A stretch of DNA of 64,000 nucleotides, taken from the NCBI RefSeq assembly GCF_051903065.1, contig NZ_CP178438.1, one strand, 5' to 3'. The DNA comes from Escherichia coli. GTDB lineage: Bacteria; Pseudomonadota; Gammaproteobacteria; Enterobacterales; Enterobacteriaceae. Made by a program: the position numbers and the translations under genes. A model generated the notes under the pieces. It did no database searches. It had not been told where the DNA came from and saw only the letters and a program-made list of their open reading frames with translations. Each line of letters begins with the position of its first letter. The first letter of the stretch is position 1. Shown here in pieces: positions 57,718-58,173 of the stretch.

Positions 57718-58173
57718 ATGAATTTTAAAAAAACAATAATCATTTCGGTAGGTTTGATATTTATTTCATTCTCTTTTGTGGCAAAGTGCTCTCAACTCAA
57801 AAATTTGAATAATTACTCAGTGATGCTTTGTGGAAAAGTGTCAAATAATATCCTGGATGATATTGGTGGTTATAAAGAAAGAGATAAAAAATCCGAAATG
57901 GTAGATTTACTTATATTAATTAGTAATGACGAGCCTAACGGTGTTTCTGAGACCAAAGTGATTTCTAATGGTAAAATATATTTTAAGGGGGAAAGTACGA
58001 TGAACTTGGATGCCTCATTCATTATGACAATAAATGGTGGAGTTCATACTGACACTGTCACTTATATATCAAAGAAGAATAAAATTATCGGGGGCTACTT
58101 TTATAATAATGAGAGTAAAACTGATAAGCTTAAGGAAGTATATATCTCAAACACAGGAACTGTATATCGGTAA
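57718..58173 (+). CDS. Putative cognate immunity protein (secreted or lipoprotein)
   Basis: 151-aa ORF 4 bp after the effector stop; signal peptide MNFKKTIIISVGLIFISFSFVAKC; low GC; stop codon lies inside the IS1 terminal repeat. Confidence 0.55.
   Translation: MNFKKTIIISVGLIFISFSFVAKCSQLKNLNNYSVMLCGKVSNNILDDIGGYKERDKKSEMVDLLILISNDEPNGVSETKVISNGKIYFKGESTMNLDASFIMTINGGVHTDTVTYISKKNKIIGGYFYNNESKTDKLKEVYISNTGTVYR

Follow-up and report, generated by a model that had tools for sequence, protein, structure and literature searches.

Truncation of a candidate immunity gene beside an intact WHIX-class T6SS effector by an IS1-associated deletion in Escherichia coli

The window analyzed here, a 64,000-nucleotide stretch of Escherichia coli DNA, contains a small open reading frame (ORF; positions 57718..58173, plus strand) that begins directly after a putative T6SS effector gene and ends at the edge of an IS1 element. 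Is this ORF the immunity gene of the effector, did the IS1 event remove its native 3' end, and, if so, how could the loss be tolerated beside an intact effector? The two genes lie in an orphan T6SS island between yncG and pptA, and the order is yncG, PAAR, VgrG, effector, ORF, IS1, ISAs1 remnant, and pptA. The first gene of the island (53031..53315, plus strand) encodes a PAAR protein (WP_001127493.1 in RefSeq) matching the NCBIfam model NF033420 (T6SS_PAAR_dom; E value, 5.5e-47). The second (53334..55481, plus strand), taken from the ORF list, encodes an intact VgrG spike of 715 amino acids (aa), which has the same length in strain ECNB21-M121 and differs from it by 6 substitutions.

The IS1 junction and the associated deletion

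The ORF comprises 151 codons and a stop codon (456 nt), with 150 native residues followed by one Arg from a hybrid codon. It starts with ATG (57718-57720) and closes with the Arg codon CGG (58168-58170) and the stop codon TAA (58171-58173). Direct reading of positions 58159-58173 gave ACT GTA TAT CGG TAA, in which the GG of the final CGG and the TAA are the first five bases of IS1 (58169 onward), in agreement with a preliminary description of the locus stating that the IS1 terminal repeat supplies these bases. Read in either of the alternative frames, the IS1 end would extend the protein by 7 or 26 residues; that the stop follows immediately at the junction is a frame accident.

The preliminary description had proposed a comparison with IS1-free alleles, and these turned out to be 17 codons longer. 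Four such E. coli alleles encode proteins of 167 aa (WP_001009642.1 for the 167-aa allele) with the C-terminus HINIESVSNDKCLDKFK (also given as ...GTVYHINIESVSNDKCLDKFK). The window is identical to the IS1-free alleles up to nt 58168, beyond which it continues into IS1, and the 17 codons past this position are present in all of them. The orthologues in Pseudocitrobacter and Salmonella, as well as more distant homologues, are 167 to 184 aa long. The ORF is the 5' 90% of a gene whose last 17 codons are gone, i.e., a truncation. If IS1 had instead fallen just 3' of the natural stop and left the gene intact, which the preliminary description had named as the case that would contradict it, the same stop position would be seen in IS1-free alleles or homologues. 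No such support was found among them, and the 17 additional codons and the lengths of the homologues refute this reading, the probability of which is practically nil. In strain 23CRST027, the same 456-nt ORF is annotated in RefSeq as a "hypothetical protein" (WP_104773314.1) with no pseudogene flag.

The element at 58169..58936 (minus strand) is a complete, IS1A-like IS1. It has the length of 768 bp, terminal inverted repeats, and both insA (58606-58881) and insB (58184-58687) on the minus strand, and RefSeq assigns its product to the IS1A family transposases. The right inverted repeat, GGTAATGACTCC... (in a longer reading, GGTAATGACTCCAACTTATTGATAG), begins at 58169, and the opposite end, ...GGCAGCATCACC, finishes at 58936. 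No IS1 ends were identified elsewhere in the window, and none is expected by chance. An 8- to 9-bp target-site duplication was sought at the flanks of the element and was absent: the 9 bp bordering IS1 are CTGTATATC (left) and CATATTAGG (right).

ECNB21-M121, the nearest IS1-free relative, served as the reference for the deletion and as a proxy for the ancestor rather than the ancestor itself. In BLAST comparisons, window positions 51000-58168 and 58936-63565 were 99.69% and 99.98% identical, respectively, to this genome, in which the two blocks are separated by 6,018 bp (6,019 if an ambiguous C is counted as IS1). In the window, this 6,018-bp block is exchanged for IS1. Its contents are the last 52 nt of the ORF (17 codons plus the native stop codon), a remnant of ISAs1, and a second PAAR gene, together with a vgrG truncated at its C-terminal end, a C39-like ORF, a gene for an M35 peptidase, and two other ORFs, one small and hypothetical and the other of 432 nt. 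The flanks of IS1 differ and are separated by 6,018 bp in ECNB21-M121. Hence, DNA was lost along with the insertion, and what occurred was an IS1-associated deletion rather than a simple insertion. Thus, the suggestion of the preliminary description that the insertion had replaced the native C-terminus stands with respect to the truncation, whereas the plain insertion gives way to an IS1-associated loss of ~6 kb. IS1 sits at codon 151, and in the proposed course of events, ~6,018 bp would have been lost either by IS1-mediated adjacent deletion or by recombination between two IS1 copies. Intramolecular transposition (adjacent deletion) and two-IS1 recombination are the simplest histories suggested by the sequence, and the data fit both alike.

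The missing block, which corresponds to positions 7354-13371 of the reverse complement of the ECNB21-M121 locus (L007) and is absent between window positions 58168 and 58937, represents a second, already degenerate T6SS island. The PAAR protein of that island is identical to the first one (WP_001127493.1), and window positions 52888-54807 are 97% identical to its PAAR-vgrG part.

The right flank (58937..59453, plus strand) consists of 11 intergenic nucleotides followed by an internally deleted ISAs1 (H-repeat) remnant just upstream of pptA. Only the C-terminal part of the NCBIfam ISAs1 transposase is represented, and RefSeq describes the product as "missing N-terminus." In ECNB21-M121, the right-flank sequence is found ~6 kb downstream of the immunity-gene breakpoint. 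In the remnant, a fragment of the left end (58948-59001) has become joined to the 3' portion of the transposase gene (from 59017 on), and its internal deletion differs from that of the ISAs1 remnant found 3' of the immunity gene in A30 and PS10-3. A 176-aa ORF (58923-59453) has its TTG start inside the IS1 end and continues into the remnant.

The adjacent effector and the ORF family

The effector gene (55632..57713, plus strand) encodes 693 aa from the RefSeq ATG, or 695 aa from a TTG at 55626, and has a WHIX N-terminus and a chitinase/GH19-like, endolysin-like C-terminus. It contains no internal stop and shows one substitution relative to ECNB21-M121, confirming that the effector beside the ORF is intact, as previously described. 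The WHxxxH motif, which defines the WHIX secretion domain (PMC12135965), is present as WHGGVH at residues 43 to 48 (695-aa numbering) and aligns with W41-H-S-G-I-H46 of the founding WHIX member, WP_005373349.1 of V. alginolyticus. Residues 35 to 117 matched WHIX region 1 (residues 33 to 120) of that protein with the motifs in register (BLASTP E value, 4e-8). For WHIX region 2, only weak, out-of-register matches (E values, 0.007 to 0.3) were obtained by pairwise BLAST, in which the reference was limited to residues 1 to 452 as taken from the supplementary model file of the WHIX paper (PMC12135965).

PGAP names the effector "M23 family metallopeptidase," and Pfam M23 matches residues 44 to 157 weakly (E value, 3.3e-4) in a segment that starts with WHGGVH. 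As judged from these alignments, the "M23" label reflects WHIX region 1 and not a second toxin. The second M23 motif (HxH) reads A-F-H by eye. A catalytic M23 function of the effector is considered doubtful on the basis of its sequence. We also considered a "double-blade" effector with M23 and GH19 activities and two immunity genes. This was rejected, as the "M23" match is the WHxxxH region 1 at the very N-terminus, and no upstream immunity ORF is present between vgrG and the effector gene.

The C-terminal domain (approximately residues 485 to 695), which contains ...ARETGRF...KGRGTIHLTGRENY..., matched PHROG endolysin families (E values, 1.4e-20 and 7.3e-20), a PHROG chitinase family (6.5e-11), and solved phage endolysins in the PDB (E values down to 6.7e-9). 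Because this domain is chitinase/endolysin-like, the effector is predicted to target the cell wall, which bears out the earlier description of a cell-wall-targeting toxin. Chitinase-like C-termini are the commonest class among WHIX effectors (PMC12135965). The gene lies directly downstream of the PAAR and VgrG genes, so that T6SS linkage and a putative peptidoglycan-targeting C-terminal domain are found together. Given that WHIX is located at the very N-terminus, the sequence assigns the effector to WHIX subclass I, a single-blade effector.

Only 4 nt separate the effector stop codon from the ORF, which lies on the same strand and is preceded by AAGGA. Its first 24 residues (57718..57789, plus strand) are predicted to form a Sec signal peptide with a Lys-Lys n-region, a hydrophobic core at residues 6 to 21 (16 hydrophobic residues by hydropathy), and an A-K-C motif. 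By manual sequence rules, small residues at -3 and -1 fit a predicted signal peptidase I cleavage after residue 24. Equivalent N-termini are present in all 13 homologues, which have A-E-S, S-G-G, A-G-A, A-H-A, C-S-A, and C-L-A at the aligned cleavage site. The signal peptide noted in the preliminary description is therefore upheld by its Sec features (the KK pair, the hydrophobic core, and the -3/-1 rule), and by the same manual rules the protein carries an export signal toward the compartment that the toxin targets. The possible lipobox, on the other hand, was dismissed. F-V-A-K-C has Lys at -1 and deviates from the consensus [LVI][ASTVI][GAS]C, and the Cys is not conserved, the residue at this position being Ser in Salmonella and either Gly or Ala in other homologues. 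One distant homologue (Trabulsiella; 21% identity) is labeled "Lipoprotein" in AFDB.

No family in Pfam, NCBIfam, or PHROG matched the ORF. A sequence search of the PDB yielded no solved homologue and only a marginal match to 6xi1, a "flagellin hook IN motif" protein (E value, 4.9e-4), and a Foldseek search of AFDB50 returned only members of its own family. A word-indexed search of 5.8 billion proteins identified four full-length clusters of 167 to 168 aa (E. coli, Pseudocitrobacter, Salmonella, and one metagenomic) plus fragments, and a HMMER scan across 1.84 billion representatives brought in about nine more-diverged members (167 to 184 aa; 20% to 49% identity). In the 13-sequence alignment, which extends down to 20% identity, C38, G85, I143, G147, and C162 are invariant, and conservation reaches at least 90% in ten further columns, H151 and F166 among them. 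The AF2 model of the full-length protein (pLDDT, 81; pTM, 0.72) has an N-terminal helix (residues 4 to 15), a low-confidence segment (residues 17 to 25; pLDDT below 50), eight strands (residues 33 to 42, 61 to 69, 80 to 90, 94 to 106, 109 to 119, 122 to 131, 140 to 143, and 149 to 157), and a terminal helix (residues 160 to 166), predicting an eight-stranded beta-barrel. The ORF belongs to a new, small, unnamed barrel family of Enterobacterales, represented by ~13 diverged full-length proteins that share two invariant cysteines.

Residues 66 to 121 of the ORF (window positions 57913-58080) match a 55-residue repeat in giant proteins, namely, 16 stretches in a 2,341-aa protein (P0012; E value, 2.3e-29) and 7 in a 1,000-aa protein (P0015). 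These repeats are of the ...DPNGLTLTA...GTDSFTY... type, and the same stretch of the ORF matches PDB entry 6xi1. The repeat match may reflect either distant homology or a shared beta-strand composition.

The ORF family follows the toxin domain. In locus L008, an orphan C-terminal fragment with 79% identity to the toxin domain of the effector is followed by a homologue (P0010) with 48% identity to the ORF. The main effector there has the WHIX part in common, but its toxin domain is just 29% identical, and the 167-aa protein encoded after it is unrelated. In locus L016, the toxin domain of the effector is 63% identical, and homologue P0025 comes directly after it. In the distant loci L010 and L015, 1 to 3 genes separate a more divergent effector from the family member downstream. 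The 196-aa gene upstream of family member P0018 in L010 was tested as an orphan toxin fragment and is not one. Adjacency, co-direction, and co-variation with the toxin domain were thus all found for the family, and the comparison suggests that it tracks the toxin subtype, with a linkage that is not absolute (L010 and L015).

On account of the signal features and this tracking of the toxin subtype, an immunity role is well supported, and we infer from the sequence comparisons that the ORF is the cognate immunity gene of the adjacent WHIX effector. Downstream genes in WHIX loci carry signal peptides (PMC12135965). In the proposed mechanism, the full-length 167-aa protein would be exported to the periplasm by its Sec signal peptide, where it would bind and block the chitinase/endolysin-like domain injected by sister cells.

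Effect of the truncation and tolerance of the loss

The lost tail holds the invariant C162 as well as H151 and F166, and AF2 places the strand segment 153 to 157 and the helix at residues 160 to 166 in the lost part. C38 and C162 are the sole invariant cysteines in the family, and since the protein is predicted to be exported, a disulfide that ties the first strand to the C-terminus is probable. With these three residues, the last beta-strand, and the terminal helix missing, the truncated product is most likely unstable or inactive, and a loss of function appears likely on sequence grounds.

A strain that is still immune, with a truncated protein that is functional and 17 C-terminal residues that are dispensable, is rather unlikely. 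The product keeps 150 of the 167 residues, among them the signal peptide and seven of the predicted strands; AF2 folds it into the same barrel (residues 33 to 143; pLDDT, 83); and the gene carries no pseudogene flag in RefSeq. However, AF2 is insensitive to truncation, and a confident model does not show that a truncated protein is stable, just as it lends no support to misfolding. Moreover, few parts of the family are as conserved as the tail across the 13 homologues, every full-length homologue reaches F166 or extends beyond it, and the last strand of the barrel and the helix are gone together with the probable disulfide partner of C38. A different objection concerns the role of the gene itself, namely, that the ORF encodes an unrelated periplasmic or membrane-anchored protein, or an effector adaptor, and lies downstream of the effector by chance. 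The lack of any Pfam, NCBIfam, or PHROG family beside the marginal 6xi1 match and the homologues located 1 to 3 genes away from the effector in L010 and L015 would be compatible with this. T6SS adaptors, however, are cytoplasmic and have no signal peptides, while the ORF protein has one, and the family co-varies with the toxin-domain subtype and not with the conserved WHIX part. In effector-less strains, orphan copies are kept beside toxin C-terminal remnants, as is typical for immunity genes, and published WHIX loci share the layout (PMC12135965). An unrelated neighbor or adaptor is accordingly quite improbable.

How the loss is borne may be explained by the state of the T6SS main cluster. 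In 23CRST027, the genome in which the cluster was read, this aspV-linked cluster has three lesions (coordinates refer to locus L013, positions 530001-580000 of that genome): a nonsense mutation in tssM (14953-18480, minus strand; CAG to TAG at codon 694), an IS903B (33294-34262) between tssB and hcp, and a frameshifted cluster vgrG (35183-37580). Where the window was compared with 23CRST027, 12,953 nt showed 0 mismatches and 2 indels, and the tssM lesion is assigned to the strain of the window by inference from this sequence match. The TAG is common only to 23CRST027 and 23CRST031, the two genomes with the IS1 junctions, and ECNB21-M121 differs at exactly this base, encoding an intact TssM of 1,155 aa. 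A Tle1/Tli1a/Tla1 module downstream in the main cluster looks intact. As the nonsense codon is present in both junction genomes, the cells are probably unable to fire the intact effector; the lineage's T6SS appears dead, with firing very probably lost.

The effector has no signal peptide. Periplasm-acting T6SS effectors are harmless in the cytoplasm of the producer, and immunity is needed only against injection by neighbors. Because the effector has no signal peptide and the main cluster appears dead, the loss of immunity would be tolerated: the cytoplasmic effector would do no harm, and sister cells would inject no toxin. If immunity was lost before tssM was interrupted, sister cells would have become sensitive to an effector that was still fired, and the tssM TAG could have been fixed as a compensatory mutation ("disarm to survive"). 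This sequence of events is unlikely; if true, decay of the immunity gene would drive T6SS degeneration in E. coli rather than follow from it. Lesions in tssM have already been described as a route to T6SS degeneration in E. coli, e.g., in O157:H7 (PMC12981562). Elsewhere in 23CRST027, hpaG (24189-25478 in locus L012, positions 225001-275000) is annotated with an internal stop, and the T6SS lesions may be part of a wider accumulation of pseudogenes in an IS1-rich lineage.

Taken together, we assign a probability of roughly 0.8 to the whole explanation, in which the cognate immunity gene of the effector was cut by an IS1-associated deletion, its function was likely lost, and the loss was tolerated.

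Distribution, meaning, and comparison with known systems

In a megablast search of 5,426 complete E. coli genomes with window positions 57400-58168 as the query, the gene was present at a coverage of at least 80% in 33 genomes, 19 of which also have the effector. Both IS1 junctions were found in only two of the 5,426 genomes, 23CRST027 and 23CRST031 (human feces, Ecuador), each of which has at least 36 IS1-matching places.

In 14 genomes, the gene is orphaned beside just the last ~230 nt of the effector gene. In one of them, FDAARGOS_144 (locus L004, about 4238-4741), an A7 run (window positions 57727-57733, codons 4 to 6) seems to lack one base, so that the signal peptide is out of frame, and the ORF called there by RefSeq starts at an internal Met and has 127 aa. 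The remaining 13 showed similar identity in the alignment and mostly the same match shortened by one base, FDAARGOS_144 being the genome that was read directly. From the sequence, the A7 homopolymer looks like a slippage-prone off-switch. About 120 further genomes, including Nissle 1917, ATCC 25922, and UPEC 26-1, matched only query positions 81 to 487, i.e., the 3' end of the effector gene and the first ~170 nt of the ORF. In copies of the Nissle type, the first 57 codons of the gene are in frame with a different protein that bears its own signal-peptide-like segment; the fusion protein (P0009; 231 aa) represents a cluster of 1,295 member sequences. Such fusions look like the recombination scar of a toxin/immunity cassette swap.

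The case is one of ordinary, strain-specific gene decay in a known kind of effector/immunity module and not a new system. Its novelty is modest: an unnamed immunity family of Enterobacterales for one chitinase-like WHIX toxin subtype and a natural truncation allele. As a natural C-terminal deletion, the allele in the window is a small natural experiment on the functional needs of the family. The RefSeq labels are misleading: the truncated product is listed like any other hypothetical protein, and the effector carries the name "M23 metallopeptidase." The co-occurrence with the tssM nonsense codon adds one case to the known degeneration of the T6SS in E. coli and raises no new question.

The locus follows the published WHIX modules (Fridman et al., PLoS Biol 2025, PMC12135965), in which VgrG, a WHxxxH effector with a peptidoglycan-targeting C-terminus, and a signal-peptide gene occur in the same order as here. 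Both the modules and this locus have polymorphic toxin/immunity ends, exchanged after the conserved junction ...WHFDPRQFIAHFRKC..., and PGAP calls Awe1 of the WHIX paper an "M23 family metallopeptidase," as it does this effector. The ORF protein, however, fits none of the immunity domains named for WHIX (DUF1311/LprI and DUF3828/Tai3; PMC12135965), and in contrast to the published modules, the immunity gene is truncated. In the part of the WHIX paper dataset that was searched by accession, neither this effector nor the ORF was found. In its architecture, an eight-stranded barrel, and in its presumed job, the family resembles the MliC/PliC periplasmic lysozyme inhibitors; membership in that Pfam family was considered and rejected, as the barrel is not accompanied by a sequence match.

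The single IS1 that lacks a target-site duplication and stands in place of a contiguous block is likewise typical of IS1-mediated adjacent deletions. Decay of the T6SS in O157:H7 also combines tssM lesions with fragmentation of effector/immunity genes, as here (PMC12981562), but in O157:H7 the effector (Etse4) is split, whereas in the window the immunity gene is hit and the effector is intact. Orphan or truncated immunity genes are known from Rhs/VgrG islands, and the same gene is found both as an orphan beside a toxin 3' remnant (FDAARGOS_144 type) and, in the Nissle 1917 type, as a 5' fragment in fusion with another immunity-like gene. The orphan and fused copies were broken by a homopolymer frameshift or by cassette recombination, and the copy in the window was broken by IS1.
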